Shown piece after piece: positions 1 through 18,217 of a stretch of 32,000 nucleotides of DNA (positions are counted from its first letter, which is position 1; each line of letters starts with the position of its first letter). The notes beneath the pieces were generated by a model, which searched no databases, had not been told where the DNA came from, and saw nothing but the letters and a program-made list of their open reading frames with translations. Location: contig NZ_CP034549.1 of the NCBI RefSeq assembly GCF_003966335.1, positions 1,770,001 to 1,802,000 on the forward strand, given 5' to 3'. The position numbers were made by a program, and so were the translations under genes. The DNA is from Nonlabens ponticola. Lineage in GTDB: Bacteria > Bacteroidota > Bacteroidia > Flavobacteriales > Flavobacteriaceae.

Positions 1-34
1 TTTTAGCTATTTGATATAATTCTTTTAAATTCAT
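1..34 (-). CDS. N-terminal fragment of the next cassette ORF (MNLKELYQIAK...), runs off the window
   Basis: ATG at 34-32 on the minus strand, 26 nt downstream of repeat R1. Same position relative to the repeat as the other cassette ORFs. Only 11 codons are visible. Confidence 0.3.
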   Translation of the reverse strand, partial: MNLKELYQIAK

Positions 35-60
35 ATTGTCTTTGGTTTGTCAAATTGCAC

Positions 61-188
61 ACAACGGTCTCGGCTATGAGTAGTTGCGTGGGTTAGCCTT
101 GTTTTCTCAAATGTACCCAACCCGTAGAAAATTTCGTAGAAATTTTTGGATGACCACAAACCGAGCAATTGTGTATAGCCCGTGTTGT
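61..188 (-). repeat. attC-like repeat R1 (128 bp)
   Basis: ACAAC (61-65) ... GTTGT (184-188). Arms GGCTATGAGTAGTTGC / GCAATTGTGTATAGCC. Inner hairpin AAAATTTC-GTA-GAAATTTT around 127-145. Confidence 0.85.
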
Positions 189-199
189 AAAACGTTTAT

Positions 200-802
200 T
201 TAGTAGCAATGAAGCGTTCGATGTTCCTCTTCTTCGTGATAATTTATTTCGCCACTAATAGCGTCGATTAGTAGTATTTCATCCTTTGAATAACATTTCT
301 CCTCGTAAAGCGTGTTGAAAACTTTCCATTCATATTTGTCAGTATGAATATTCCACTCCAATCTCATTGTTATAGGCGATACAGCTTTCTTTAATTTTAT
401 TTTCGATACGATGTTTTCGACTTGTTTTTTGGTCAGAAAATTTGAGTTTTCATTTTTGAGCAAATATTCCGGTATTCGCTCATCAAAATACATATCAATA
501 AATTTCAATGAGGTATCAAATTCCATATAAACTCCAAGATGTACATTTTCGAACGTGAAATTTGGATGGTTTAAATCATATAAAACTTCATATCTATCAA
601 AAGGCGAAGAAATCACATCTAAGCTATCAGTTTTGGCTAGCCGAGACTCTTTATCTAAACTGAAGTATTCAATTAAATGTTTTCCGAAATGGGCATTTAA
701 TACACTATCTGCTTTCACTAAAATTTGAGAGGCAGTATGATTTTGACCATTGCCATGGTAAGCCATTGAAACAAAAAAGAAAAATGTAATTAAAGGTTTC
801 AA
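200..802 (-). CDS. Cassette ORF: exported protein of unknown function, possible PepSY-like C-terminal region
   Basis: 200-aa ORF. TTG start 13 nt from R2. N-terminal hydrophobic signal-like segment KPLITFFFFVSMAY. C-terminal pattern LTKKQVENIV...YEWKV...LLIDAISGEI resembles PepSY domains. TAA stop 11 nt from R1. Confidence 0.6.
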   Translation of the reverse strand: MKPLITFFFFVSMAYHGNGQNHTASQILVKADSVLNAHFGKHLIEYFSLDKESRLAKTDSLDVISSPFDRYEVLYDLNHPNFTFENVHLGVYMEFDTSLKFIDMYFDERIPEYLLKNENSNFLTKKQVENIVSKIKLKKAVSPITMRLEWNIHTDKYEWKVFNTLYEEKCYSKDEILLIDAISGEINYHEEEEHRTLHCY

Positions 803-815
803 TTCTAAATGTTTT

Positions 816-942
816 ACAACGGTCTCAGCTATGAGTAGTTGCGTGGTTTAGCACTTAACTTTGCAAGTACACACCTAACTGAAAATCCGCGAGGATTTTC
901 AGAAGTAGGCGAGAACCAGCAATTACTTATAGCCATTGTTGT
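816..942 (-). repeat. attC-like repeat R2 (127 bp)
   Basis: ACAAC (816-820) ... GTTGT (938-942). Arms AGCTATGAGTAGTTGC / GCAATTACTTATAGCC. Inner hairpin GAAAATCC-GCGA-GGATTTTC at 881-900. Confidence 0.85.
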
Positions 943-951
943 ACACAGTAT

Positions 952-1734
952 TTATTTACTTAATTCTATTTGAAATTTTGTCGCATTAAATGCTGCTTGC
1001 AAACCTCTTAAATTTGTTTCAGATTTATTTTGTTCAAATAATTCAGCCAAGTATTCAGCTTGTTTGGTCACATTATCATTCTCCTTTTTAAATATTTGAT
1101 ATTTTAAAAGAATCAAATTCGCCATGATTTTATCTGAAATAGTTATATCACCTTGGTTTAGGTATTCCTTTATTGTACTTCCTATCTCGGAATCGTTTTC
1201 AGATAGTTCATCGAATAAGTAAGCATTAGCCAAGTCAGATTTATTCATAGTTGAGTAATCGTTTTGGTCAGACATATCTTTTCGGTAAGTCATTTTGTTG
1301 CCATTTAGAAAATACCATCTGGTGTAAGAATCATTTTCCATTTTGATTTCTTTTTCAAAAGCTTTTTTCTTTACAGTCCAATTTGTGAAAGCAATCAAAA
1401 GTTCAGTTCCGTCATCTTTCTTTAATATGGTAAATCGAATCAAGTAATTTCTTTTCCCTGGTTTTTCAATTTCGATGTCTAATTTATTTTCTACAGAAAC
1501 ATATTTTTTCAATGCTTTTAGAACTGATGAAACATCTTCAGGACTTGCTTCAGGAAATAAGTTTTCTCTTAAAAACAAATCAATGTATAAGTAATGAGTT
1601 AAATAAAAATCATCCATTTTCAGATAATTCGCCTCTGTCAAATGTTCGGTTTTGATATTGATTTTGTCTGATTGAGAATATCCAAAATTTGTGAATATTG
1701 CTAAAAGTAAAAGTGTGATTATTTTTCTGTTCAT
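952..1734 (-). CDS. Cassette ORF: exported protein of unknown function
   Basis: 260-aa ORF with ATG start. Signal-like N-terminus MNRKIITLLLLAIFTNFGYSQ. TAA stop 9 nt from R2. Confidence 0.65.
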   Translation of the reverse strand: MNRKIITLLLLAIFTNFGYSQSDKINIKTEHLTEANYLKMDDFYLTHYLYIDLFLRENLFPEASPEDVSSVLKALKKYVSVENKLDIEIEKPGKRNYLIRFTILKKDDGTELLIAFTNWTVKKKAFEKEIKMENDSYTRWYFLNGNKMTYRKDMSDQNDYSTMNKSDLANAYLFDELSENDSEIGSTIKEYLNQGDITISDKIMANLILLKYQIFKKENDNVTKQAEYLAELFEQNKSETNLRGLQAAFNATKFQIELSK

Positions 1735-1754
1735 TCTGTTGGGTTATATTGTGT

Positions 1755-1881
1755 ACAACGGTCTCGGCTATGAGTAGTTGCGTGGTTTAGTACTTAACTT
1801 TGCAAGTACACACCAAGTTGGAAATTCCGCAGGAATTTCAAAAGTAGGCGAGTAGAAGCAATTACTTATAGCCATTGTTGT
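1755..1881 (-). repeat. attC-like repeat R3 (127 bp)
   Basis: ACAAC (1755-1759) ... GTTGT (1877-1881). Arms GGCTATGAGTAGTTGC / GCAATTACTTATAGCC. Inner hairpin GAAATTCC-GCA-GGAATTTC at 1821-1839. Confidence 0.85.
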
Positions 1882-1891
1882 ATGCTGGCTT

Positions 1892-3388
1892 TTAAAGTCT
1901 CATCATTACCTCCGTTAATTTATTTTTTCTAATTTTCCATTGAAATTCTCTTAACTCCTCTATTTCAATGTTGCCATCTTTCGCTTTTAAAGTTTCAATG
2001 AAATCTCTTACCGTTTTGTCATTCCTTTGCCTTAATATGCAATGGTAAGTTAGTCCAACAAAGAAATATCCATCTTCTTTAGCTCTTTCAATAAATTCGA
2101 CTTTGTGGTCAGCTAGATCTACAACTTTACCATTAATTTCAGCGTACCCATTTTGATATTCACTGTATGATATGTGATGCTCATCATCAACAATTGCAGT
2201 ATGAAATGTCTCTTCTCCTTCAACAATAAATGGTTCTGACTTATTATGATGAACTAAAATGAAGTCATTAAAAACACTGTTGTCATAGAATACCCAAATT
2301 TCTTTTATTGAGTATTCTGAATCCCAAAATTTCCAGGTAGCTAACCCTTTTCTTGTTAGTGTAAAATCAATATTTCCAGAACCATCGTGCCACCACAGTT
2401 TATTATCAAATAGTTCTTCATTATCCTTAAAGGTTTGGAAAAGACTATCTATTCGTTCTAAATCATTGCTATGAACAAAGCCCCAGTTATTTTTTGGAAA
2501 ATTACTACGAACAACTCTATTAAAGTCGTACATATATTCGAAAATATCTTTTTCTCTACTATCCTTTATATATTGTTTGATGTCTGCAATGCTTTGGAAT
2601 CTTTGGCTTGGTTCATTTTTTAAACAATTTTCAATAACTCCATTAAACATTCTCTCATCTTCTATTTTGAGAGAAATTCTTTTTCTTCCCGTGCCTCTGT
2701 GTGTATTTCCTGTAGCAAACCATTGTAGAATTTGGCCAATTGCATATATATCCATAGTCGGATGTGAATCTTTGCCGGCTATTTCTTGTTCTGGTGCAGA
2801 AAAAAGTCTATTACCAATTCTTTCATTCTTGACAGTTTTTGCTCGGATTTCAAAAATTTCAGGATTGTAACTGGCGATTCCAAAATCTGCTAAAACATAT
2901 TTTCCATCTTTAACTAAAATGTTTTCTGGTTTTAAGTCTCGATGAATAATGCCTTGACTATGTATTTCATCTACTGCATCCAATAAAAAATTAAGTAGTT
3001 TAATGAAATTTTGACCCTTGTTTTCTGATTCATCAAGTTTTAATGAACTTTCATATTCCTTCATCATTATCACTGGAATAATCGCAGAACCCTCTTCATC
3101 CTCGAGGTTTAGCAAATCGTAATCCACATATTTAACGATGAAATTCGTTTTCTCAATAGTTACTATGTTGAAATATTCTGCTAAAAAACGCTCGGTCTTT
3201 GTTTTTAGAGATTTTCCAGAGGTATTACTCAAAAGAAATTTGAAAGCAAATGTCTTTCCGAAAATTTCACCTTTGTATACAATTCCGTTGCCACCTTCAC
3301 CAATTTTATCAATCAAATTTATTTCTCCAACAGAAAGCTGAATCTTATTTTTATTGTCTTTTAAATATCTTGAAAATCGTTCTTTCAT
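1892..3388 (-). CDS. Cassette ORF: Ser/Thr protein kinase domain fused to a ~200-aa C-terminal domain of unknown function
   Basis: 498-aa ORF. Glycine loop GEGGNG plus lysine in FAFKF. Catalytic loop HRDLKPENILV. DFG (LADFGIA). APE-like SAPE. No signal peptide. Confidence 0.85.
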   Translation of the reverse strand: MKERFSRYLKDNKNKIQLSVGEINLIDKIGEGGNGIVYKGEIFGKTFAFKFLLSNTSGKSLKTKTERFLAEYFNIVTIEKTNFIVKYVDYDLLNLEDEEGSAIIPVIMMKEYESSLKLDESENKGQNFIKLLNFLLDAVDEIHSQGIIHRDLKPENILVKDGKYVLADFGIASYNPEIFEIRAKTVKNERIGNRLFSAPEQEIAGKDSHPTMDIYAIGQILQWFATGNTHRGTGRKRISLKIEDERMFNGVIENCLKNEPSQRFQSIADIKQYIKDSREKDIFEYMYDFNRVVRSNFPKNNWGFVHSNDLERIDSLFQTFKDNEELFDNKLWWHDGSGNIDFTLTRKGLATWKFWDSEYSIKEIWVFYDNSVFNDFILVHHNKSEPFIVEGEETFHTAIVDDEHHISYSEYQNGYAEINGKVVDLADHKVEFIERAKEDGYFFVGLTYHCILRQRNDKTVRDFIETLKAKDGNIEIEELREFQWKIRKNKLTEVMMRL

Positions 3389-3408
3389 TTTGTTATTTCA
3401 GCTTGCAT

Positions 3409-3536
3409 ACAACGGTTATGTATAAATATAGTTGCGGGTTTGCGTGCGAAGAATTTCCGAAGGAAATTTAGATGTAGCAAATACGCAACTGCCTTTATTT
3501 TAGCACTAAACCGCAATTATTTTTATACGGTGTTGT
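3409..3536 (-). repeat. attC-like repeat R4 (128 bp, divergent sequence, same structure)
   Basis: ACAAC (3409-3413) ... GTTGT (3532-3536). Arms GTATAAATATAGTTGC / GCAATTATTTTTATAC still pair. Inner hairpin AATTTCC-GAA-GGAAATT at 3452-3468. Confidence 0.8.
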
Positions 3537-3545
3537 GCATAGTTT

Positions 3546-3935
3546 TTATTCACATACTTTATTTTTTTCAATCCACGGATTAATAAATTTCCTTTCAGTT
3601 CCGAGTATTGTTTTCATTTCGGGTTCGTCGAAAATTAGATAGAAATTTTTGTCTTTTTCCACGTATTTAAATTTCAATTCAGTACAATATTTTCCAGTGC
3701 CGTGATTTACGAGCATACTTATAATTCCATCTTCAATTTTTATGTCTTTCACGGATTCCACCATAATAAAATTAACTTTTATATCAGAAGGAATTTCTTT
3801 TTCACTATAATTTCCAAGGTCATTCATTTCAATCATTTCGTCAACGATTTCTTGAATCCATTTGTCAATAGATTTTTCTTGGTTGATTTGGATGTTTGAA
3901 ATTCCAATCAAAAATGTCAGTAAAATTATTTTCAT
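3546..3935 (-). CDS. Cassette ORF: small exported protein of unknown function
   Basis: 129-aa ORF with ATG start. Signal-like N-terminus MKIILLTFLIGISNIQ. TAA stop 9 nt from R4. Confidence 0.6.
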   Translation of the reverse strand: MKIILLTFLIGISNIQINQEKSIDKWIQEIVDEMIEMNDLGNYSEKEIPSDIKVNFIMVESVKDIKIEDGIISMLVNHGTGKYCTELKFKYVEKDKNFYLIFDEPEMKTILGTERKFINPWIEKNKVCE

Positions 3936-3956
3936 ATTCTGTTTCTCAAATTATGC

Positions 3957-4083
3957 ACAACGGTTTGGGCTATGAACAGTTGCGTGGGTTAGCACGGACT
4001 TCTACAAGTAAACTGCAAGCTGAAAATTCCGCAGGAATTTTCAGGATAAGCCTGTAATAGCAATTGTTTATAGCCATTGTTGT
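3957..4083 (-). repeat. attC-like repeat R5 (127 bp)
   Basis: ACAAC (3957-3961) ... GTTGT (4079-4083). Arms GGCTATGAACAGTTGC / GCAATTGTTTATAGCC. Inner hairpin GAAAATTCC-GCA-GGAATTTTC within 4021-4043. Confidence 0.85.
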
Positions 4084-4093
4084 AAAACGTTTT

Positions 4094-4690
4094 TTACTCC
4101 AAATATTCTACATCAGAACGAACTTTTTCACGCCATTTATTTCCGTATTTTTCGTCCATTAGTTCAAATATCCGTTCGTTATATTGTTCAATACATTCCG
4201 AAATTGGTGGTTCACAACCAAAATCAAAATATTTAACTTTAAATCTTTTCTCAAATCGATTGCCGGAAGGTGAGTTTGCAATTGGTGCAATTGAACCAAC
4301 AAGTAATAAATTTGCCGTTCCGTTTTTCCAGTCAGATTCTGCACGTTCAGCATTATATTCACAATCCGCTTTTAATTCAAACGTCACGTTATTAATTCCG
4401 TTTTTCGTTTCGACGTCAAACTTTTGTTTTCAGTAACCGAATGCAGAGATCTCTATAATATATTTTTGATTAGGTTCAAGATATTCAATTCGGAAATTAC
4501 CTAAACTGTCAGCCATAATTAATGGTTGTTTAGTAATCAATTCTTGAACATAAATATCCGAAATTGGTTTTTCTCCTGAAACTCCGCTAATCACCTTTCC
4601 TACGATTTCAGTTTGTCCGTATATAATTCCGCAAACTAATATTAAAATCAGTTTGATAATGTTTTTCTGTATGTTCAGATTTTTCTTCAA
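4094..4690 (-). pseudogene. Cassette ORF split by one in-frame TGA: N-terminal CarboxypepD_reg-like exported segment (4430-4690) plus a C-terminal part (4094-4387)
   Basis: The 86-aa and 97-aa ORFs are in the same frame. 4388-4429 is 42 nt (14 sense codons, KQKFDVETKNGINN) and the only interruption is the TGA at 4432-4430. The downstream ORF has only a GTG start. There is no attC-like repeat between them. Confidence 0.5.
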
Positions 4691-4697
4691 ATGTTTT

Positions 4698-4825
4698 ACA
4701 ACGGTCTAGGCTATGCGCAGTTGCGCGGTTCATCCTTATTTTTCCAAATATATTCAAACCGTAGAAAATTCCGCAGGAATTTTCGGATGAGCAATGACAG
4801 AGCAATTGCGTATAGCCATTGTTGT
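4698..4825 (-). repeat. attC-like repeat R6 (128 bp)
   Basis: ACAAC (4698-4702) ... GTTGT (4821-4825). Arms GGCTATGCGCAGTTGC / GCAATTGCGTATAGCC. Inner hairpin GAAAATTCC-GCA-GGAATTTTC at 4764-4784. Confidence 0.85.
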
Positions 4826-4834
4826 AAAACGTTA

Positions 4835-5599
4835 TTATTTATAAACTCTTTCATAAATTCCTATTTCGCAACCGCTACATGTGCTCAATATAGAATTTCT
4901 CTTTTTAATATGTTTAATTAGTATTTCATCCAACTTGCTTAGTTCGAAACTGGTGTTCTCGTCTAAATATTCCAAAGCGTCTACTCCGTAAGTTTGTAAT
5001 TCTGGATTAAATGATTTTAACCATTCTCTAAACTTTTTCGCATTCCTTTTTTTATCGAATTTGAAATCATTATATCTTGGTATTTTGTAAGAAATAGGCG
5101 CATATCCACAAAAGTATCCGTAAATATGATAAGATAATACCTGACTGATAAAGTCTTCTTTTTTTAAGTTGGTTTGGTAGAATACATTATGATTACTTAA
5201 ATATTCGTCAAACGTAGTTTCTTCAAAGTAAAATTCGGTGTCTTTTCGATAAGTATCAAAACTTATTAAACCTACTATGATATTATTTTTTTTGAACGTA
5301 TGAACATTATACGATTTATTTTTTATCTGTTTGTTATCAGGATAATTAATGTTTACTTCATATACTGATTCGGTTAAACCGTAGTCGATATCTCTAGCAT
5401 ATAGGAATCCGCCAAAACTATATTTAGGATTAACCTCTCTTATGGTTTTGAAATCAATCAACTTTAAAGTGTCCAAATCAAAATTTTGGTATTCTTTAAA
5501 ATAGTTCTGAATTTCAGCTACCGCGTTCATTTCCGCTTGACTTTGAGAAAAAGACAATAATGGAATAAGCAATAAAATAAAAAAGTTTAGTGTCCTCAA
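4835..5599 (-). CDS. First cassette ORF: exported protein of unknown function
   Basis: 254-aa ORF. TTG start (no in-frame ATG before a stop). Signal-like N-terminus RTLNFFILLLIPLLSFSQSQ. TAA stop 9 nt from R6. Confidence 0.6.
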   Translation of the reverse strand: MRTLNFFILLLIPLLSFSQSQAEMNAVAEIQNYFKEYQNFDLDTLKLIDFKTIREVNPKYSFGGFLYARDIDYGLTESVYEVNINYPDNKQIKNKSYNVHTFKKNNIIVGLISFDTYRKDTEFYFEETTFDEYLSNHNVFYQTNLKKEDFISQVLSYHIYGYFCGYAPISYKIPRYNDFKFDKKRNAKKFREWLKSFNPELQTYGVDALEYLDENTSFELSKLDEILIKHIKKRNSILSTCSGCEIGIYERVYK

Positions 5600-5616
5600 A
5601 GGTGTTTATTAAAATG

Positions 5617-5632
5617 TTTTACAACGGTTATA
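5617..5632 (-). other. attI-like half-site (left arm of the repeat only)
   Basis: TTTTACAACGGTTATA matches the flank, ACAAC core and spacer of the repeats (AAATGTTTTACAACGG is shared with R2 and R6). The sequence then becomes unique, with no right arm. It lies between the first cassette and the recombinase. Confidence 0.7.
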
Positions 5633-5636
5633 TAAA

Positions 5637-5667
5637 CAAACCTAAGCCATTTATTACCAGTTTACAA
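5637..5667 (-). promoter_or_regulatory. Candidate Pc-like promoter reading into the cassette array
   Basis: The minus strand reads ATTG (5668-5665), a 20-nt spacer, then TAGGTTTG (5644-5637). This resembles the Bacteroidetes -33 TTTG / -7 TAnnTTTG consensus and is positioned just upstream of the half-site. Motif match only. Confidence 0.25.
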
Positions 5668-5674
5668 TACTATA

Positions 5675-5699
5675 TGGTAGGTATATGCAAACCTTTTGA
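5675..5699 (+). repeat. Direct repeat DR-a (TGGTAGGTATATGCAAACCTTTTGA)
   Basis: Matches DR-b at 23 positions with two 1-nt indels, 48 bp upstream of DR-b. Contains a 4-codon mini-ORF, ATG CAA ACC TTT TGA. Confidence 0.7.
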
Positions 5700-5707
5700 T
5701 AGATTTG
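5700..5707 (+). promoter_or_regulatory. Candidate -7 box (TAGATTTG) for the recombinase gene
   Basis: Matches TAnnTTTG 25 nt upstream of the ATG at 5732. No convincing -33 element found. Confidence 0.2.
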
Positions 5708-5722
5708 AACATAATTCACTTT

Positions 5723-5745
5723 TGGTAGTATATGCAAACCTTTGA
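5723..5745 (+). repeat. Direct repeat DR-b (TGGTAGTATATGCAAACCTTTGA), overlaps the recombinase start codon
   Basis: Second copy of DR-a. Its ATG (5732) opens the 277-aa recombinase ORF. Confidence 0.7.
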
Positions 5746-6565
5746 CGATTTTAGGCAGTTAATGACCATTAAAAGGTATGCGCCCAACACTATTGATTCT
5801 TATCGTGGTTTACTCATTGCCTTTCAAAAATTCCTAGGGCATGATCATCCTATCGACGAGTTGCAGGATCGTCAAATAAAAGAGGCAGTAAGCGAGGTAG
5901 TCGTAGCAAAGTCTCTTGCCGTTGCCACGCAAAAGCAACTACTGTCTGCACTAAAACTCTATTTTAAAGAGATGCACAGACGCGATCTTGACTTTTATAG
6001 CGTCTATCCTAGAGTAAAGCCTAGACCTATTCCAGTGATTTTGAGCACGCAGGAAGTAGGAGCAATTTTATCGCATACCAAAAACTTGAAACATAAAGCC
6101 ATGCTAACGCTAATTTATGCGTTGGGATTACGCAGCGGCGAGCTCATCAATCTCAAAATCAGCGACATCGACAAACATCGCAAGCTGGTACACATTAAAA
6201 GTTCCAAAAACAAAAAGGATCGTATCATTCCTTTTCCTGATGGTCTGGGCGAGCTTTTAAATAAGTACTACAAGGAATACCAACCTACGGAATTCTTATT
6301 CAACGGCCAGTCCACAAATCAGTACCACGCGCAAAGCCTGCGCAAGGTGTTCCACAAATCGTGTAAGCTTGCTGGAATCAACAAGAAAGTTACACTGCAC
6401 AGTTTGCGCCACGCCTATGCCACGCACCTCATGGATGCAGGAACTGATTTGCGTGTCATTAAGGAATTGCTGGGTCACAACAGTATCAAGACAACATTGA
6501 TCTACACGCATGTAACCAATAAAACGCTTCAACACTTGCCCAATCCGCTGGATTTTATCAAATAA
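5732..6565 (+). CDS. Tyrosine site-specific recombinase, XerC/XerD-like, lacking the IntI-specific insertion
   Basis: 277 aa. N-terminal SAM-like core-binding region (YAPNTIDSYRGLL, ATQKQLLSALKLYF). Catalytic signature LGLRSGE (Arg I), HSLRHAYATH (His-x-x-Arg), LLGHNSIKTTLIYTHV (His, Tyr). About 60 aa separate KKDR from LRH. Confidence 0.9.
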   Translation: MQTFDDFRQLMTIKRYAPNTIDSYRGLLIAFQKFLGHDHPIDELQDRQIKEAVSEVVVAKSLAVATQKQLLSALKLYFKEMHRRDLDFYSVYPRVKPRPIPVILSTQEVGAILSHTKNLKHKAMLTLIYALGLRSGELINLKISDIDKHRKLVHIKSSKNKKDRIIPFPDGLGELLNKYYKEYQPTEFLFNGQSTNQYHAQSLRKVFHKSCKLAGINKKVTLHSLRHAYATHLMDAGTDLRVIKELLGHNSIKTTLIYTHVTNKTLQHLPNPLDFIK

Positions 6566-7975: not shown

Positions 7976-10954
7976 TTACCAGTGTAGCGTTTCACATTCA
8001 TACAAGGTCTTGGTGGATTGTTTGGCAAGCTGCGTTTTCAAGCCTTTGTTTTTTGCCATAATCATTTCGTTTGTCAACTGTTGACGTTCCTTTTTTATGC
8101 TTTCGCGAAAGCTAACATCACGAGATTTCTCAAAGAACACAATACCATCTACCAGGGTATATTCCGGGATCGCCTTGATGTCTAGCGGATTGTGGTTCCA
8201 CAAAACGATATCTGCATCTTTACCTTCCTTGATGCTACCTACACGGTCGTCGATATGCAGCAGTTTTGCAGGATTGAGTGTGACAAACTTCCAGGCTTCT
8301 TCCTCGCTCACGCCACCGTATTTTACAGCCTTGGCAGCTTCCTGGTTCAAGCGTCGTGACATTTCTGCATCATCACTGTTAAACGCGGTAAGAACGCCTT
8401 GTGAATGCATGATGGCACCATTGTAAGGTATGGCGTCGTTCACTTCATACTTGTAAGCCCACCAGTCGCTAAAGGTTGATCCACCAGCGCCGTGTTCTCT
8501 CATCTTATCAGCCACCTTGTAACCTTCTAGAATATGCGTGAATGTGTTGAGTGTGAAACCGTATTTCTCGGCCACCTTCATCATCATGTTGATCTCGCTC
8601 TGTACATAAGAGTGGCAGGTCACATAGCGCTCGCCGTTGAGAATCTCAACCAGCGTTTCCATCTCCTCATCATAACGGAAGTTGTTATCGCCTCTAGACT
8701 TGTCATATTCCTGCGCACGTGTAAAGTAATCTTCAAAAACCTGCTCGACACCCATGCGCGTTTGCGGGAAACGTATGCCGTTCTGGTATCTGGACTGCTT
8801 CACGTTCTCACCCAGCGCAAACTTGATAAACTTAGGTGAATTGTCATAGATCATCTCCTGCGGGCTATAACCCCATTTAAGCTTGATGATCGCACTACGG
8901 CCACCAATGGGATTGGCACTACCGTGCAGCAGTTGCGAAGTCGTAACGCCACCAGCAAGATCACGGTAGATGTTGATGTCCTCGTGATCAACAACGTCCT
9001 CGATGGTAACCTCGGCAGTACTGTTATGTCCAGCCTCATTTACACCTTGATCAATGGCGATGTGCGAGTGCTCATCAATAATACCACTAGTTAGGTGCAT
9101 GCCGCTGGCATCAACCACTCTAGCGCCACCAGCGCTCAGGTTTTTACCTACTTTAGAAATCTTACCGTTCTTGACCAGTACATCGGTATTCTCAAGAATA
9201 CCAGCATCTTCATTAGTCCATACGGTCGCGTTTTTAAATAGGATGGTTTCTGCTTTGAGTTTTGTTTTAGAGCCGTAAGCCACATTAGGATAGGTCATGT
9301 TGCCTAGATCGGTGATCATTTCTTGATCGGCTTCATCCTCTTTATCGTCATCGTCTTTTTCATCTTCTGCTTTCTTATCGGCTTGTTTTCTAGCGACAAA
9401 GGATCTTTCAATCCCATTAGGTAAGTAAACCTTTCCTTTCAACATCTGCGGATTACTCTCGGTCAATTTCATGCTCCAGCGCGTGTAGGTTTTATCATCA
9501 GCGTCCTTTTGGGATGTCGTGATGGTAATCCAGTCGTCGTTGCGCACGATCTTGCTGCCTAATTTTGTGCTGTCCAGCATGACTTTAACCGTCTTTGCAT
9601 CGCCGCTGATAGCCAATTCATATGTGTCGCCGTTTACTATGGCTTCATAAGTTCCATCCACGTTGAGTAAACCACGATCTTTCAACACATGCTTGGATCC
9701 TTGAACCCAATTTTCATAAACATCAGTGTCTTTTTCAAAAAGCTCGCCACTGGTAACGATAAAGTTTGCGTGCTTTCCTTTTTCCAAGGTTCCAATAGAA
9801 GAACTCAAGTTAAGCAATGCTGCTGGTGTGGTTGTTAGTGCAGCTAGTGCTTGATCTGCGGTCAATCCATATTGCATGGCACGCATCAATTTTGCATGAA
9901 GCTCGTCAGGTGATTTTAAACCATGTGTAGTAATACTGTATTTCACGCCAGCATCGGCCAATTTTTTAGGATTAGCAGGTGCTTGTTTCCACTCACGCAT
10001 GTCAGCGAGATTCACGTACCATTCTTGGTAAGGGTCAGTCACGTCATAAGCATCTGGGAAATTGATCGGTAAAATTAGTTGTGCATTGGTAGCTTTAATG
10101 GCATCCACCATCTCTAGCGCATCTTCACCACCTACAATGACAAATTGCTTGCCTACGCGATCACCGACCTTATCTGCTCTTAATACATTTTTCTTATTTC
10201 CAGCTTCTATGTATTGAACCAGGTTCTTATTGGCATTCAATGCCTCTAGTGAGCGGTCTTTGGTTTTGGAATTGCCAGCGGCATACCAGTCTGCATCAAA
10301 GTGTGATTGACGTAACAAAGCCATAGTTCCCATAAGCGAAGTAGGATAGGACTGGTTCGTCTGTCTACTACGGTCAAATGAGAAAAACTGACCACTCTTA
10401 TTATTCAGGATACGTTGCGAGTCGTCACCATTATTATTTAGCGCGACAACCATACCAGTACCACGAGCGATACCGTCGTGTAAGTGCGTTTGTACCACAC
10501 CATAACCAGCTTTCATCATGCTTTCGGCTTTCTTTGAGTCGTACTCGTAAAAGTCGATGGCATCCTGCTCGGCACGTATGTGGTCGTTCCAGTAAAAACC
10601 TTGTCGACCTTCATCGTATTGTTGACCGCGTGACTCATTCTTAGGAACCGTCATTCCAAAGTCTGCATAGGTCTCAATGAACGATGGGTAAATAAAAGTG
10701 CCGGTAGCATCTTCTACTACGGCATTTTTAGGAATCTTAATGTTGCGACCTACGTCCACAATTTTGCCGTCCTTAATCAGGATCGAGGCGTTTTCTAACT
10801 TCTTTCCCGGACTCGTGATGATAGTCGCACCAGTCAAGGCACGCATCGACTTACTCACTGCCGATATATCATCATTATTGGGAAAGTATTCTTGGCCTTG
10901 CGCGGTCATCGCCGCCATCGCCAGAATGGAAAAAAGTATTTTTTTCATATACAT
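7976..10954 (-). CDS. Large two-module amidohydrolase-family protein, exported
   Basis: 992 aa with signal-like N-terminus (MKKILFSILAMAAMTAQGQ; ATG at 10954 or 10948). N-terminal module IKDGKIVDVG...VEDATGTFIYPSF lacks HxH. C-terminal module VKNGKISKVG...VDASGMHLTSGIIDEHSHIA has it. Confidence 0.85.
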   Translation of the reverse strand: MYMKKILFSILAMAAMTAQGQEYFPNNDDISAVSKSMRALTGATIITSPGKKLENASILIKDGKIVDVGRNIKIPKNAVVEDATGTFIYPSFIETYADFGMTVPKNESRGQQYDEGRQGFYWNDHIRAEQDAIDFYEYDSKKAESMMKAGYGVVQTHLHDGIARGTGMVVALNNNGDDSQRILNNKSGQFFSFDRSRQTNQSYPTSLMGTMALLRQSHFDADWYAAGNSKTKDRSLEALNANKNLVQYIEAGNKKNVLRADKVGDRVGKQFVIVGGEDALEMVDAIKATNAQLILPINFPDAYDVTDPYQEWYVNLADMREWKQAPANPKKLADAGVKYSITTHGLKSPDELHAKLMRAMQYGLTADQALAALTTTPAALLNLSSSIGTLEKGKHANFIVTSGELFEKDTDVYENWVQGSKHVLKDRGLLNVDGTYEAIVNGDTYELAISGDAKTVKVMLDSTKLGSKIVRNDDWITITTSQKDADDKTYTRWSMKLTESNPQMLKGKVYLPNGIERSFVARKQADKKAEDEKDDDDKEDEADQEMITDLGNMTYPNVAYGSKTKLKAETILFKNATVWTNEDAGILENTDVLVKNGKISKVGKNLSAGGARVVDASGMHLTSGIIDEHSHIAIDQGVNEAGHNSTAEVTIEDVVDHEDINIYRDLAGGVTTSQLLHGSANPIGGRSAIIKLKWGYSPQEMIYDNSPKFIKFALGENVKQSRYQNGIRFPQTRMGVEQVFEDYFTRAQEYDKSRGDNNFRYDEEMETLVEILNGERYVTCHSYVQSEINMMMKVAEKYGFTLNTFTHILEGYKVADKMREHGAGGSTFSDWWAYKYEVNDAIPYNGAIMHSQGVLTAFNSDDAEMSRRLNQEAAKAVKYGGVSEEEAWKFVTLNPAKLLHIDDRVGSIKEGKDADIVLWNHNPLDIKAIPEYTLVDGIVFFEKSRDVSFRESIKKERQQLTNEMIMAKNKGLKTQLAKQSTKTLYECETLHW
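8099..8112. repeat. Iterated palindrome copy 2 (GCTTTCGCGAAAGC)
   Basis: Read directly. Inside the 992-aa amidohydrolase in a different frame (SFRES). Confidence 0.95.
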
Positions 10955-13372: not shown

Positions 13373-13776
13373 TCTACCTTCTCATAACGTTCTGCACAGG
13401 CTTCCATACACTGATAGCGTACTTCAAGGATCTTACCATTAAGTTCAAAAGCTGCGATACAGCCGCCTTTATTGAAGCTCTTGGTGGTCATGTCTAGTTC
13501 GGCTGTTTTGCCAGCGGTAAAAAAGTTGCCCACACAAACGTTCTCGTTGGATACAACGGTACCTTCCTTTTTAAAAGTCAAGGTCTTATCGCTATCTGTT
13601 TCTTGAAATTTAGCACTGCCATTACCAGGATCTGCAAGAGAATGAGTGATTCTCCAGGTACCATAAATAGGCGATTTTGATTCGGTAGTATTTGATCCAC
13701 AGGAGACAAAAAGTAGGGCAACTGCGATGATAGTTAGGGCTTTCAACGTGAGTAATTTAAGGTTAAGATACATCAT
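13369..13776 (-). CDS. Small lipoprotein of unknown function
   Basis: 135 aa. Lipobox-like LLFVSCGS after a hydrophobic leader. Confidence 0.65.
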   Translation of the reverse strand: MMYLNLKLLTLKALTIIAVALLFVSCGSNTTESKSPIYGTWRITHSLADPGNGSAKFQETDSDKTLTFKKEGTVVSNENVCVGNFFTAGKTAELDMTTKSFNKGGCIAAFELNGKILEVRYQCMEACAERYEKVD

Positions 13777-13846
13777 TTATCGATATCAGGTCATTTTACA
13801 TTTTCAATCATACTTTGCTATCTTTCCTGTTTATCAATTTATAAGC

Positions 13847-16261
13847 ATGAGAATTCTAGTAATAATTGCAATAATCCTGGCTGGTAGCACCTTAACTTCT
13901 TGTAAGGCGAGAAAAAATGTTGATGATTTAGCTTTCGCGAAAGCGCAATCAACCAAAACACCTCAACAATTCAAGGGCTTCTTCAATTTCAATTATGATG
14001 TAAACAAGGGCGCTATATCGCTAGAAGTCAAAGATCTAGATAGCGAATTTCTCTACGTACACGCGCTGGCAACAGGATTGGGATCCAATGATATAGGATT
14101 GGATCGAGGCCAGTTGGGTGGTGGCGTTGTGGTAAAATGGATCAAGGCAGGCAACAAATTACTGCTCGTTCAACCCAATTTATCCTATCGTGCAATTACC
14201 GAAAATAACGAAGAACAAGCCAGCGTGGAAGAGGCTTTTGCACGATCTGTACTGTATGGATTTGAGATCAAAAAGACCGTTGATGACGTCCATACCATTG
14301 ACTTGACACCATTCCTACTAGAAGATGCTCATGGCGTGGCACAACGATTAAAATCTAGAAACCAGGGAATCTACAAAATAGATAAATCGCGCAGCGCATT
14401 GTGGATGGAAAATACTATGGCATTTCCCGATAATGTGGAGTTTCAAGCCATGCTCACATTCACTGGTGAGCCTAAAGGTAGCGACCTGCGTAGCGTGGCT
14501 CCAGATGCGAGCAGCGTGAGTGTGATCCAGCATCACAGTTTTGTACGCTTGCCTGATGATCAGTATGAACCTAGAGAATTTCACCCGAGATCAGGATCAT
14601 TTTACACTAGTTATCTAGATTACAGTACACCTATCTCGCAGCCCATTCGGAAGCGATTGATCACCAGACATAGACTCGCCAAAAAGAATCCAGAACTAGC
14701 TATGAGTGAGCCAGTAGAGCCTATCATCTACTATCTGGATCCTGGTACGCCACAACCAGTGCGCGATGCGCTTATCGATGGTGCCAGTTGGTGGAACGAG
14801 GCTTTTGAAGCTGCAGGATATAAAAATGCCTTTCAGGTAAAAATGTTACCTGCTGATGCACATCCACTAGATGTGCGCTACAATGTGATACAATGGGTGC
14901 ATCGCAGTACGCGTGGCTGGAGTTATGGTGGCTCGATAACAGATCCTAGAACTGGCGAAATCATAAAAGGGCATGTTTCATTAGGTAGTTTGCGCATACG
15001 TCAGGATTACATGCTGGCGCAAGGAATGCTAGATAAGCCTTTTGCAAACGGTCAGGAATCACCAGAAATGCTAGAAATGGCACTGGCTCGTATCAGACAA
15101 CTAGGCGCGCATGAGGTAGGTCACACGCTGGGTTTTGCCCATAATTTTGCTGCGAGCATGAGCGATCGCGCTAGTGTCATGGATTATCCGCATCCCAAGT
15201 ATGATTTGAAAAATGGCAAGATTGATCTATCTGATGCTTATGATACAGGCATAGGTGAATGGGATAAATTGACGGTGCAATATTCTTATGGCGATCCAGC
15301 GGCTGGACAGTCGCAGGAAGAATACTTGCAATCCATTTTACAGAAAGCCATTGATCAAGATTTGCTCTTCATTACAGATAGTGATGCGCGCGCTAGCAGC
15401 GGTGCGAGTGCAGACGCACATTTATGGGATAGCGGAGAAAGCGCCGTCGATGAATTGGAACGTATCCTTAAGGTACGTCAGGTAGCTATGAAGCAATTTG
15501 GCCTGGATAATATTCCTAATGGGCAACCTATCAGTGTTCTGGAAGATGTTTTCGTACCAGTCTATTTCTCACACAGGTATCAGGTAGAGGCGGCTAGCAA
15601 GTTATTAGGTGGTATGAGATACAGCTATGCTATTAAAGGAGACCCTAAGTTCACTTATGTGCAAAAAGCAGAGCACGAAAAAGCGCTAAAAGTATTATTA
15701 AACACACTTGATGTGAATCAATTGACCATACCAGAAGATTTGTTGACTTTGTTTGCGCCTAGGTCTTATGGGTACAATCGCGACCGGGAAAGCTTCAAAT
15801 CCCAAACGGGCGTCGCTTTTGATCCAGTTGCTGCAGCTGTCACTAGTGCTGACATCACACTGGATCTCATGCTCAATGCAACAAGACTCAACCGCATCGC
15901 ACAACAAGAAATTTATGGTGATAATCTTGAATTGTCTGAGATGATTGAAGAACTAACCGATAAGATTTTCTCTAACGACACAAACACAGCTTATGAGCAA
16001 TTAATTACTGACAGAATCAAAGAACAATACGTCAACAAATTGCTGATGGCTACTAATTCATCCAGTATCAATGCTGTGGTTAAAGGCCAAATTCTTGCTC
16101 AAATCAGTAGGATAGAGAGCCTATTAAGTAAATCGAGTAATCCAACGGATAAGGTATTGCTGCAAAGCATTGAACAAGCAAGACAGCATCCTGAAATGAT
16201 CAAAGAATTACCAGTTGCAAAAATTCCAGATGGTAGTCCGATAGGTAGTTGTGGAATGTAG
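13847..16261 (+). CDS. Secreted zinc-dependent metalloprotease (lipoprotein-type signal)
   Basis: Start trimmed to ATG 13847 (MRILVIIAIILAGSTLTSCK). HExxH...H motif in LGAHEVGHTLGFAHNF. About 800 aa. Confidence 0.85.
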   Translation: MRILVIIAIILAGSTLTSCKARKNVDDLAFAKAQSTKTPQQFKGFFNFNYDVNKGAISLEVKDLDSEFLYVHALATGLGSNDIGLDRGQLGGGVVVKWIKAGNKLLLVQPNLSYRAITENNEEQASVEEAFARSVLYGFEIKKTVDDVHTIDLTPFLLEDAHGVAQRLKSRNQGIYKIDKSRSALWMENTMAFPDNVEFQAMLTFTGEPKGSDLRSVAPDASSVSVIQHHSFVRLPDDQYEPREFHPRSGSFYTSYLDYSTPISQPIRKRLITRHRLAKKNPELAMSEPVEPIIYYLDPGTPQPVRDALIDGASWWNEAFEAAGYKNAFQVKMLPADAHPLDVRYNVIQWVHRSTRGWSYGGSITDPRTGEIIKGHVSLGSLRIRQDYMLAQGMLDKPFANGQESPEMLEMALARIRQLGAHEVGHTLGFAHNFAASMSDRASVMDYPHPKYDLKNGKIDLSDAYDTGIGEWDKLTVQYSYGDPAAGQSQEEYLQSILQKAIDQDLLFITDSDARASSGASADAHLWDSGESAVDELERILKVRQVAMKQFGLDNIPNGQPISVLEDVFVPVYFSHRYQVEAASKLLGGMRYSYAIKGDPKFTYVQKAEHEKALKVLLNTLDVNQLTIPEDLLTLFAPRSYGYNRDRESFKSQTGVAFDPVAAAVTSADITLDLMLNATRLNRIAQQEIYGDNLELSEMIEELTDKIFSNDTNTAYEQLITDRIKEQYVNKLLMATNSSSINAVVKGQILAQISRIESLLSKSSNPTDKVLLQSIEQARQHPEMIKELPVAKIPDGSPIGSCGM
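13931..13944. repeat. Iterated palindrome copy 3 (GCTTTCGCGAAAGC)
   Basis: Read directly. Inside the metalloprotease, encodes LAFAKAQ. Confidence 0.95.
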
Positions 16262-16471: not shown

Positions 16472-16548
16472 AATTAAAGCAAAATGCGTGTTCGAACGCA
16501 GTCGAGAACTAATTGTCATGAAGTTTAAAATTCAGATTGTCAGTATCT

Positions 16549-16604
16549 AAATACTAAATACTAAATACTAAATACTGAATACTGAAAACCGAACACTGAA
16601 TAAT
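16549..16604. repeat. AAATACT heptamer run, 4 perfect units plus about 4 degenerate units
   Basis: aaatact x4, then gaatact, gaaaacc, gaacact, gaataat. Confidence 0.85.
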
Positions 16605-16660
16605 CGAGGACAGAGGCCACTCGAAGTCCGATTGAAAGTTTAAATAAAACAACGGATTCT

Positions 16661-18217
16661 TTACAATCCACCTACCGCAGCCTCAGCACAACGTTCACCG
16701 TCCATGGCTGCACTGACAATACCACCGGCGTAGCCACCACCTTCACCGCACGGATATAGATTTTTTATTTGTGGATGTTCCAGCGTTTCAGTGCGCGGTA
16801 TTTTTACGGGAGATGATGTTCTAGATTCTACACCTACTATGTTGGCTTCATTGGTATTGTAGCCATGCATTTTGTGACCAAAAGCTGCAAAGCCTTTTCG
16901 CAATCTACTGCCTATGAGTTTGGGTAATAAACTATGTAACGGCGCACTATGCAATCCAGGCTGATAAGAGGTTTCATTGAGAGTATCGGACAGTTTACCA
17001 TCAACAAAATCCGTCAATCGCTGTGCTGGAGCCGTTTGTGATTTACCGCCTGCGGTAAAAGAAAGTTGTTCTAGATTTTTTTGAAATTCCAATCCAGCCA
17101 GCGCGCCATGTTTTTCAAATGATTTGAGATCGGTATCGGCATTGATTTCGACCACTATGCCAGAGTTGGCAAACTTATTATTGCGTCGCGATGGCGACAT
17201 ACCATTGACTACGACTTCGCCAGATTGGGTGGCAGCAGGAACGATAAAACCACCAGGACACATACAAAAAGAATAGACGCCGCGGCCTTTTATTTGCTGT
17301 ACCAGACTGTAAGACGCAGCTGGCAACAACTCGCTACGCTCGCCGTCACAACTGTATTGAATAGAATCAATGATATGTTGCGGATGCTCAACACGCACGC
17401 CCATGGCAAATGATTTGGCTTCAATCGTCACTTTTTTGCGATGCAGTAATTCAAAAATATCTCTAGCGGAATGGCCTGTTGCTAGTATCACTTTATTTAC
17501 GGCGACTTCATCTTGATCATTTAATATTAATGAGGTTATCGCATCATTTCTTAAAATAAAATCAGTGACTCTCGTCTCAAAATGGATCTCACCACCATAC
17601 TGTAAGATGGTTTCCCGTATGCGCTGGATGATTTTGGGTAGCTTGTTCGTACCTATATGCGGATGCGCATCTACTAGAATTTCGTTAGTCGCGCCATGAA
17701 AAACCAAGTTTTCAAAAATGCGACGCACATCGCCACGTTTCAAACTGCGCGTGTATAATTTACCATCGCTGTATGTTCCTGCGCCACCTTCGCCAAAACA
17801 ATAGTTGGAATCCTCGTCAACCACATGATCCTGATTGATGGCCTTGATATCGCGACGTCGTTTTTGCACATCCTTGCCACGTTCATAAACTACTGGTTTG
17901 TAGCCTAATTCCATACAACGCAATGCTGCATACATTCCAGCTGGGCCAAAGCCGATGATATGAACTTTTGACGCCTTAGAAACGTCTTGATAATCAAATT
18001 TATATTCGGATTCTTGAGGTAGAGGCTCGTTTATGTAAACGGCTATCTTGTAATTAAAAACCACAATCTTTTTGCGTGCATCAATAGACTTACGCAATAC
18101 CACGATGCCGTTGATATTTGACACATCTTCACCTAGGTGTAAAGCAGCTCTTCTTGTAAGATCAGGATCTTGCTCTTCTTCAGGCAAACTTACTCGCAGC
18201 TGTATCTCTTTAATCAT
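16661..18217 (-). CDS. FAD/NAD(P)-dependent oxidoreductase (COG2509-like)
   Basis: 518 aa. Dinucleotide-binding motif IIGFGPAGMYAAL. C-terminal GEGGGYAGGIVSAAMDG typical of this flavoprotein family. Confidence 0.8.
   Translation of the reverse strand: MIKEIQLRVSLPEEEQDPDLTRRAALHLGEDVSNINGIVVLRKSIDARKKIVVFNYKIAVYINEPLPQESEYKFDYQDVSKASKVHIIGFGPAGMYAALRCMELGYKPVVYERGKDVQKRRRDIKAINQDHVVDEDSNYCFGEGGAGTYSDGKLYTRSLKRGDVRRIFENLVFHGATNEILVDAHPHIGTNKLPKIIQRIRETILQYGGEIHFETRVTDFILRNDAITSLILNDQDEVAVNKVILATGHSARDIFELLHRKKVTIEAKSFAMGVRVEHPQHIIDSIQYSCDGERSELLPAASYSLVQQIKGRGVYSFCMCPGGFIVPAATQSGEVVVNGMSPSRRNNKFANSGIVVEINADTDLKSFEKHGALAGLEFQKNLEQLSFTAGGKSQTAPAQRLTDFVDGKLSDTLNETSYQPGLHSAPLHSLLPKLIGSRLRKGFAAFGHKMHGYNTNEANIVGVESRTSSPVKIPRTETLEHPQIKNLYPCGEGGGYAGGIVSAAMDGERCAEAAVGGL

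Follow-up and report, generated by a model that had tools for sequence, protein, structure and literature searches.

The window analysed here, a 32,000-nucleotide (nt) stretch of the Nonlabens ponticola chromosome (NZ_CP034549.1, positions 1,770,001 to 1,802,000), contains a gene for a tyrosine recombinase of the Xer/IntI superfamily next to an array of attC-like sites and gene cassettes. Our analysis indicates that this gene is likely to encode the cognate site-specific recombinase of an integron-like cassette platform resident in the chromosome, that is, a Bacteroidota variant of the integron whose integrase needs no I2, the domain specific to IntI. The recombinase gene lies beside an attI-like region where cassettes accumulate, and each cassette consists of cargo and an imperfect-repeat site with AAC/GTT triplets whose outer bases come from the adjacent cassette, in line with the functional definition of an integron.

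The array occupies window positions 1-5620, an AT-rich segment with six repeats of about 128 nt in the same orientation and one minus-strand open reading frame (ORF) per unit (two in one unit). Each repeat has ACAAC at its start and GTTGT at its end, and the array is divergent from the recombinase gene and runs on past the left edge of the window (Table 1). Beyond these cores, the two flanks of one repeat share 0-1 contiguous complementary nt (R6 excepted), whereas the right flank of a repeat is complementary to the left flank of the next repeat, or of the attI-like region, over 4-5 contiguous nt and at 7-9 of 10 positions in all six window units. Such end-to-end complementarity marks discrete cassettes which circularise and undergo recombination within a conserved core, as integron cassettes do. 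The comparison was extended to 47 genome loci and nine complete-genome contexts (0.8 Mb in total; loci are numbered with the prefix L), in which sites were detected with a covariance model based on 13 sites, with six compensatory pairs in the inner stem of 16 bp. This model replaced a detector of exact ACAAC...GTTGT hairpins, which had returned the six window sites and almost none in other species because the cores vary and only AAC/GTT is invariant; AAC is present in 85 and GTT in 88 of the 89 non-redundant sites and the remainder of the core is variable. Over the 7 nt beyond the triplets, 37 of the 66 consecutive pairs from about 20 arrays were complementary at 6-7 positions. Among random pairs the share was 1.6%, and of the 89 pairs made of the two flanks of the same site it was one. 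The scores were bimodal across arrays, and pairs failed the rule because undetected sites lie between their members.

Table 1. Coordinates of the recombinase gene, attI-like region, candidate promoters, attC-like sites and cassette cargo in the window. For site R6, the plus strand is the better-folding ('bottom') strand; bits are covariance-model scores of the sites.
Feature	Position	Strand	Remarks
Tyrosine recombinase gene, Xer/IntI superfamily, without I2 domain	5732..6565	+	277 aa, ATG start
attI-like region	5621..5743	.	crossover core ACAAC 5621-5625 (AAC 5623-5625) and three direct boxes
attI box 1, ATATAAACAAACC	5630-5642		adjoins lone ACAAC at 5621
attI box 2, GTATATGCAAACC	5681-5693
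attI box 3, GTATATGCAAACC	5728-5740		overlaps recombinase ATG
Candidate Pc, TAGGTTTG	5637..5644	-	TAnnTTTG match inside box 1, 12 nt before GTT crossover, directed into cassettes
Candidate Pint, TAGATTTG	5700..5707	+	TAnnTTTG match 24 nt upstream of recombinase ATG
attC-like site R6	4698..4825	+	134.3 bits
attC-like site R5	3957..4083	+	144.3 bits
attC-like site R4, divergent type	3409..3536	+	92.8 bits; compensatory changes keep inner stem; 85% identical to a site in L050
attC-like site R3	1755..1881	+	150.7 bits
attC-like site R2	816..942	+	150.9 bits; type 93-95% identical in Nonlabens YIK11, Flagellimonas and a Chitinophagales metagenome-assembled genome
attC-like site R1, weakest hairpin	61..188	+	120.7 bits
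Cassette 1 cargo ORF	4835..5599	-	254 aa, signal peptide, without Pfam match; first cassette, adjoins attI
Cassette 2 cargo, two ORFs	4094..4690	-	86 aa (4430-4690) and 97 aa (4094-4387)
Cassette 3 cargo ORF	3546..3935	-	129 aa
Cassette 4 cargo ORF	1892..3388	-	498 aa, protein kinase domain (E=8e-24)
Cassette 5 cargo ORF	952..1734	-	260 aa
Cassette 6 cargo ORF	200..802	-	200 aa

The attI-like region combines a lone core with three direct boxes, and the same layout, with boxes that co-vary with the recombinase, was found at six further loci (L001, L002, L004, L005, L048 and L049). The third box lies over the recombinase ATG, which suggests autorepression, and the gene is probably autoregulated through this placement at its start codon. 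The -7 element of Bacteroidetes promoters has the motif TAnnTTTG; judging from motif and position, its two matches in this region could act as Pc and Pint (Table 1). Furthermore, the attI boxes (TATATAAACAA / TATATGCAAA) are similar in sequence to the L-arm of the attC-like sites (GGCTATAAGTAA...), in agreement with a single protein reading both.

Comparison of closely related platforms located the crossover at the triplets. Two platform copies in one Chitinophagales genome (L010 and L011) are identical over a stretch of 107 nt that ends with ...CAATTGTT and differ from the position behind GTT onwards, and the boundary between platform and cassette lies likewise at GTT in L008, L009 and L012. 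Similarly, two mobilizable plasmids of the same replicon type, from Flagellimonas (L177; NZ_CP092416.1, 7904-10822) and Arenibacter (L179; pSMS7, NZ_CP022516.1, 5700-7173), share a platform of recombinase and attI. From AAC precisely, the two plasmids are 100% identical for 989 nt, and they carry different first cassettes: one is erm(F), with ends complementary at 6/7 positions, and the other a hypothetical gene, with 7/7. In this plasmid pair the erm(F) first cassette is reversed, a DHFR-family cassette lies behind and a Tn3 transposase adjoins the array. Recent exchange was also evident in a cassette without ORF, of which three Nonlabens genomes contain 11 copies (L051 1446-1832 and five others; L050 1408, 8212 and 9503; L049 2679 and 5191). 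Nine of the copies are exactly 384 nt long, their N7-AAC junctions differ and two stand directly at attI. This cassette has a long variant hairpin (AAC GGCAAAGG...CCTTTGCC GTT), about 150 nt of cargo and complementary ends (CAGGCCA/TGGCCTG), and may act as a promoter, a small RNA or a selfish cassette; its appearance in L051 as a '390-nt element' was considered as a miniature inverted-repeat transposable element (MITE) or insertion sequence, and this was rejected since it obeys the end rule. In L048 one cassette is duplicated, with copies 100% identical. Additionally, sites of the R2 type are 93-95% identical across genera and even in another class, with differing cargo (L010 19692-19834, Chitinophagales; L041 8889-9031, Flagellimonas; L051 6316-6458), and site 'types' appear to circulate across Bacteroidota.

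The association between the recombinase family and the array holds well outside N. ponticola. Relative to the recombinase gene, 65 of the 89 non-redundant sites are upstream in plus orientation, 23 downstream in minus, one upstream in minus and none downstream in plus. In type 1 loci, arranged as in the window with a divergent array, all 13 orthologues having at least 50% identity and at least 900 nt of upstream sequence carry the array at the same position and in the same orientation, and the four orthologues without sites stand on contigs that end at most 250 nt from the gene. The search of relatives proposed in the initial annotation thus returned an array beside every evaluable orthologue, and its suggestion that the enzyme is cognate to the array is strongly supported by these orthologues, by the AAC/GTT boundary and by the attI boxes that co-vary with the recombinase. 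In type 2 loci, found in Flavobacterium, Chitinophagales, Cyclobacteriaceae, Salibacteraceae and Draconibacterium, homologues with 40-46% identity precede a downstream, co-directional array, and attI lies 60-110 nt past the stop codon. Draft contigs often end a few hundred bases from the recombinase on the array side, upstream in L001, L002, L003 and L005 and downstream in L014, L017, L019, L020, L024-L026, L029, L043 and L044, suggesting that the repeats routinely break short-read assemblies and hide arrays. When metagenomes were scanned with a motif of 17 nt, 80 contigs were recovered, mostly marine, of which 71 had genuine sites, with up to more than 20 sites per 11.7 kb. A coincidental adjacency, in which the repeats would be repetitive extragenic palindromic (REP)/MITE-like palindromes or terminators and the recombinase would come from an unrelated element, can invoke the lack of an Rfam family for the repeats and the lack of a recombinase in most metagenome array fragments; it is effectively refuted, because 88 of the 89 sites have one of two fixed orientations to the gene, the cassette-end rule holds, and the boundaries between platform and cassette fall exactly at AAC/GTT beside the gene.

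The sites share a common plan, in which an outer helix (N7-AAC/GTT-N7) leads through an asymmetric 6x3 internal loop to an inner helix of 16 bp that ends in a variable tip; the median distance from AAC to GTT is 124 nt. In the 95-row alignment, which was itself fitted to the covariance model, 89.2% of the cells are paired as against 69% in shuffles and 31-40% in slid controls, and the inner helix is 96.7% paired with double changes in 16 of its 16 pairs, values that none of 500 shuffles reached. One inner-helix position is G.T in 85 of 92 sites. The 3' spacer is almost always 3 nt long (87 of 89 sites) and the 5' spacer mostly 6 nt (63 of 89), and the inner helix has no bulged base on its 5' side in 73 and on its 3' side in 84 of the 89. 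In the window, the repeats fold as long hairpins that are more stable on the plus strand, antisense to the cargo, in five of the six cases, since the G.T wobbles of this strand become C.A mismatches on the other. The sites thus keep the attC plan (R box with AAC/GTT, unpaired spacer, L helix, variable tip), mostly without the extrahelical bases that I2 reads, and bulge-free sites fit an enzyme that has no I2. The expectation of the initial annotation that recognition of the folded site must work differently here is consistent with the 16-bp uninterrupted helix, the G.T wobble, the 6x3 loop and the general absence of bulges.

The same platform and enzyme might instead act on double-stranded sites through two strand exchanges, as Xer, Cre or the lambda core do, the hairpin being incidental, for instance a terminator. 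We regard this as unlikely, while giving it real weight: the one domain known to provide recognition of single-stranded attC is missing from the enzyme, and IntI1 itself is reported to be still capable of double-stranded attI x attI reactions (PMC4792948). However, the duplex junction has a single conserved arm, and the N7 complementarity of the cassette ends would be useless in a duplex, yet in a circular cassette that has folded it makes the outer helix complete. Moreover, all 16 inner-helix pairs covary while the sequence drifts, and the invariant G.T and fixed 6x3 loop amount to a strand asymmetry that a duplex site does not need.

The protein that would act on these folded sites has the intact catalytic set of a tyrosine recombinase. 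It matches Pfam Phage_integrase, one of the profiles proposed in the initial annotation, at residues 104-263 (E=1.3e-40) and the N-terminal SAM-like Phage_int_SAM_4 at residues 4-86 (2.8e-12). The full signature read in the 277-aa ORF is present, with LRSGE (R134), HSLRHAYATH (H223 and R226), GH (H249) and Y258, and these residues, together with K159, are invariant in an alignment of 49 homologues. The distance estimated as about 60 residues between the KKDR region and the HxLRH box is 59 when counted from R164, at the end of KKDR, to H223, and 64 from K159. This K-to-H spacing is 63-65 across the family, 66-72 in Xer enzymes and 107 in VchIntIA. In phmmer, the match to VchIntIA (PDB 2A3V, IntI4) is split, query residues 7-169 aligning with 9-170 and 201-273 with 245-317, so that 31 residues of the query stand against 74 of VchIntIA, whereas XerA (5HXY) aligns in a single piece. 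In the AlphaFold2 model (pLDDT 84.3), two helices separate the beta-hairpin from the HxLRH helix; at equal E-value, Foldseek aligned this model with XerA over 279 columns and with VchIntIA over 314-319, about 40 of them gaps, so that the structural comparison called for beforehand requires about 40 extra columns for 2A3V. The integron integrase profile TIGR02249 (182.5 bits, cutoff 265) and the IntI profile PRK15417 (110.2, cutoff 435) matched in two stretches as well. The IntI-specific I2 domain is absent from the window recombinase, and its description as a short Xer-like enzyme without the IntI insertion is borne out by the split profile matches, the phmmer gap, the Foldseek comparison and the K-to-H spacing. 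The corresponding NCBI protein (P0001) is 267 aa long and starts 10 codons downstream of the ATG at 5732 (window 5732-5761); the longer N-terminus is conserved in orthologues (100% coverage) and lies inside the SAM-like match, its ATG being within box 3, and the deposited start is probably wrong.

The enzyme also scored below the cutoffs of the Xer families, namely XerC (TIGR02224, 171.5 against 335.15), XerD (TIGR02225, 184.3 against 329.6) and the XerA equivalog (NF040815, 196.6 against 220). It is therefore not filed under IntI, XerC/D or XerA, because I2 is missing and all these cutoffs are missed. A rough neighbour-joining tree, with few outgroups reconstructed from PDB alignments, sets the recombinase family apart from XerA, XerD and IntI4 without indicating a sister group. 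Homologues number 1663 at E<=1e-20, mostly in Flavobacteriaceae and other Bacteroidota, and some plasmid copies are labelled 'xerA' by the Prokaryotic Genome Annotation Pipeline (PGAP). That the enzyme could be a degenerate integron integrase that lost I2 secondarily, its arrays being inactive relics of canonical integrons similar to CALIN (clusters of attC sites lacking an integron integrase), is suggested by the TIGR02249 score, reached despite the missing segment and similar to that of XerD, and by the occurrence of both gene/array orientations of canonical integrons. We judge this very improbable, since the short form prevails among thousands of proteins and their catalytic residues are invariant, the sites have no canonical attC extrahelical bases, the tree separates the family from both IntI4 and Xer, and exchange is recent, as seen in the ORF-less cassettes at 11 junctions and in the identical plasmid platforms with different cassettes.

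The composition of the locus separates the recombinase gene from the cassettes. The gene has 42.7% GC and a third-codon-position GC (GC3) of 0.489, the rest of the window 42.1% GC, and the cassette cargo 28-32% with GC3 of 0.24-0.29; positions 6301-6360 contain exactly the 33 G+C counted in the initial annotation. Its proposal of a resident platform agrees with a recombinase gene whose GC and GC3 equal those of the host and with AT-rich cargo, and the cassette cargo is foreign to the host.

A host-like gene would also be expected of the main rival explanation, a resident Xer-type resolvase that would mainly resolve chromosome or plasmid dimers at a dif/cer-like site beside its own gene, as in xerS/difSL, and be exploited by hairpin cassettes resembling integrative mobile elements exploiting Xer (IMEX), which would accumulate there as CTXphi and TLC do at Vibrio dif. 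The fold and profile scores of the enzyme are as near to XerA/XerD as to IntI, the PGAP label of the plasmid copies points the same way, and CTXphi is an example of folded hairpins that are processed by Xer in the absence of I2 (PMC7790495). Furthermore, a type 2 subgroup (L008, L009, L012 and L178; proteins P0121-P0240) has 347 aa with a 75-aa N-terminal extension, is 74-97% identical across Chryseobacterium, Kaistella, Flavobacterium and Halpernia, and is very abundant (more than 7900 database proteins at E<=1e-40). Against such a resolvase, type 1 orthologues are only 54-74% identical within Nonlabens and their neighbour genes differ in every Nonlabens species. The platform lies at about 74%, 35% and 65% of the chromosome record length, and twice in one genome (23% and 90%), and is thus not consistently placed opposite an origin, judging from positions along records whose origins were not verified. 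In addition, the three-box attI that overlaps the start codon looks like a dedicated, regulated site, and its R arm is cassette-derived and variable, unlike a palindromic dif. Finally, in Flagellimonas sp. S174 (L041), an in-frame internal deletion in the recombinase (10001-10540; ...LDGERN|TIKTTMVYTH...) removes the beta-hairpin Lys, HxLRH and GH, and at least six cassettes persist upstream despite it. Taken together, these observations make a resident resolvase rather doubtful in our view, and the cognate recombinase of an integron-like platform remains the favoured reading.

Several observations weigh against that reading. The conservation and abundance of the 347-aa subgroup may indicate a housekeeping Xer role, and at two loci (L009 and L021) a homologue has no detected sites. 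The metagenome array contigs contained only one partial recombinase of any kind, in a scan that is uninformative on the enzyme because the contigs lie in mid-array. In addition, the pair counts of the hairpins derive from an alignment made with the model under evaluation, and R1 is slightly less stable on the plus strand (-17.0 kcal/mol) than on the other (-17.7 kcal/mol).

Under the favoured reading, a mechanism can be proposed from the shape of the sites. The enzyme would bind the 'bottom' strand, which is antisense to the cargo, in its folded form. Each helix would take up one monomer, and the strand would serve as a pseudo-duplex core site in which the outer helix would provide one arm, the inner helix the other and the 6x3 loop the central region. 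This binding would resemble that of XerC/D on the folded attP(+) hairpin of CTXphi, which provides a precedent for an I2-less Xer enzyme acting on a folded hairpin (PMC7790495). Cleavage would take place at AAC, one strand would be exchanged with a second folded site or with attI in double-stranded form, and replication would resolve the junction so formed. The choice of strand would depend on the asymmetric loop and on the G.T wobbles, whose counterparts on the opposite strand are C.A mismatches, and not on extrahelical bases such as those read by the I2 of canonical IntI.

The platform shares many traits with canonical integrons, such as those of IntI1 (class 1) and VchIntIA (Vibrio cholerae). 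Both have a tyrosine recombinase gene beside attI, a divergent array of mostly single-ORF promoterless cassettes each ending in an imperfect palindrome with an AAC/GTT triplet and with outer R-box bases from the neighbour cassette, extra direct-repeat boxes in attI (DR1/DR2 of attI1), a preferred folding strand antisense to the cargo, and cargo that includes toxin-antitoxin, defence and resistance genes with many unknowns. Parasites of the arrays are a further likeness: within the type 2 array of a Chryseobacterium plasmid (L178; NZ_CP041688.1) we observed an IS110-family transposase (14074-15075) and a group II intron reverse transcriptase (16540-17856), which are reminiscent of the IS1111-attC elements and group IIC-attC introns found as parasites at the sites of canonical integrons. 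Unlike in canonical integrons, the enzyme has no I2 of about 40 residues, which defines IntI and contacts the extrahelical bases, and falls below the TIGR02249 and PRK15417 cutoffs; the sites have an uninterrupted 16-bp helix with a G.T wobble and a 6x3 loop and are mostly bulge-free, and the host phylum is Bacteroidota. The type 2 loci L008, L010-L013, L015, L018, L040 and L178, co-directional with attI just past the stop codon, recall the 'inverted-intI' integrons of Treponema denticola, although the Treponema IntI has I2 and the type 2 enzyme and sites differ from it as they do from canonical integrons.

Likenesses to Xer-dependent systems were also found. CTXphi and IMEX at dif, using XerC/XerD, share with this platform an I2-less Xer-type enzyme, a folded single-stranded hairpin of about 150 nt that mimics a duplex core with an unpaired centre, tandem accumulation at the site, and a single strand exchange with resolution by replication; for the platform, the single-stranded substrate, the exchange and its resolution are proposals. 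However, those elements are phages or islands that use the housekeeping XerC/D at the terminus dif, whereas the platform carries one-gene cassettes with a standardised site, a single locus-specific recombinase and a multi-box attI. The pdif modules of Acinetobacter plasmids are likewise small, often carry resistance genes, are bounded by Xer-type sites and are shuffled between replicons, but their sites are 28-bp XerC/XerD duplexes in alternating orientation, with no hairpin, polarity or adjacent dedicated recombinase. Archaeal XerA (PDB 5HXY and 4A8E; NF040815) is the best sequence and fold match, with 30% identity end to end and no large gaps, and is a single-recombinase system of similar length; the window enzyme is below the family cutoff, and it occurs in a bacterial host with cassette arrays instead of a chromosomal dif.

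The platform is widespread in Bacteroidota and related arrays carry clinically relevant resistance cassettes. The erm(F) unit, from AAC to AAC, is 94-97% identical on plasmids of Sphingobacterium, Myroides, Parabacteroides and Riemerella. On the Myroides albus plasmid pMA84474 (L180; NZ_CP102755.1, 2700-11500), five resistance genes are separated by attC-like sites and follow the end rule (aadS 7/7, blaMYO-1 5/7, ere(D) 7/7, erm(F) 6/7 and blaOXA-347 7/7). This array is bracketed by two units, each with an integrase and an IS91-family transposase, and these IS91-associated tyrosine recombinases are 39% identical to the query in the catalytic domain only. A motif, GTTGAACTAAACC(N4-5)GGTAGCT, follows an attC-like hairpin directly upstream of both IS91-associated integrases (L180 ~600 and ~11480) and is also found at the distal end of an Aequorivita array (L053 ~7200); it may mark the end of an IS91-type element, or the target for its insertion at attC-like sites.

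In this regard, work on Riemerella anatipestifer (2026) reported that aph(3')-IVb, taken up by natural transformation as a polymerase chain reaction (PCR) fragment that includes 27 nt of 5' and 140 nt of 3' sequence, integrates without any need of homology; its authors noted an attC-like fold, cited similar behaviour of lnu(H) and blaRATA, found no integron by software and named no recombinase (PMC13148043). The Riemerella units have a short 5' leader, an ORF and an attC-like 3' region of about 140 nt, integrate site-specifically and homology-free, and belong to a Flavobacteriales host, and aadS, erm(F) and blaOXA-347 are cassettes in the arrays analysed here, although attI and array logic, like the recombinase, are not named in that work (PMC13148043). 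By analogy, the Riemerella integration may depend on a member of the window recombinase family. Considering all this, we think it reasonably probable that Bacteroidota own a widespread integron lineage with an I2-less Xer-like integrase and folded single-stranded hairpin sites without extrahelical bases, which is invisible to current finders and is an unrecognised vehicle of resistance cassettes in Flavobacteriales and Bacteroidales, namely erm(F), aadS, ere(D), blaOXA-347 and blaMYO-1, and probably aph(3')-IVb, lnu(H) and blaRATA.

Some further features of the window were recorded. In cassette 2 the 86-aa ORF has a signal peptide and the 97-aa part matches an ORF in the L004 array at 45%; the two may be one gene split by a frameshift. 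Apart from this match, no window cassette ORF was common to other arrays, and mobility was therefore argued from sites and junctions. In Rfam, neither the repeats nor the 384-nt cassette nor the window had a meaningful match, and no tRNAs were found. Self-BLAST revealed a short direct repeat at window 16268 and 16414, about 146 nt apart, just past an 844-aa ORF (13727-16261).

In previous work, IntI has been defined by I2, and I2 has been credited with making single-stranded attC recombination possible (PMC7790495). An IntegronFinder survey reported for Bacteroidetes only In0 elements and one complete integron, in Salinibacter, and a search of supplements to it returned no Nonlabens or Flavobacteri* entries (PMC9024848), which lends indirect support to the expectation of the initial annotation that standard integron finders would classify the locus as CALIN or miss it. 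A 2024 preprint lists Bacteroidota among clades 'previously found without any integrons' (bioRxiv 2024.07.02.601686). We found no prior description of the enzyme or the platform among the open-access papers searched, where the Riemerella work is the sole related hint. Bacteroidota are listed as essentially integron-free because detection software encodes ideas based on I2. If the reading proposed here is true, I2, held to be the key integron innovation, would not be required for integron-type gene capture, and the Bacteroidota platform would represent another molecular route to the capture of cassettes, perhaps even the ancestral one. The gain of resistance genes without homology in Riemerella, so far unexplained, would then have a mechanism (PMC13148043), and erm(F), aadS, ere(D), blaOXA-347 and blaMYO-1 would be mobile cassettes, which bears on resistance surveillance and on the design of integron finders. 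Additionally, the compact recombinase and its structured site would form a pair for genome engineering, and a large unexplored pool of cassettes would be opened in marine and host-associated Bacteroidota.

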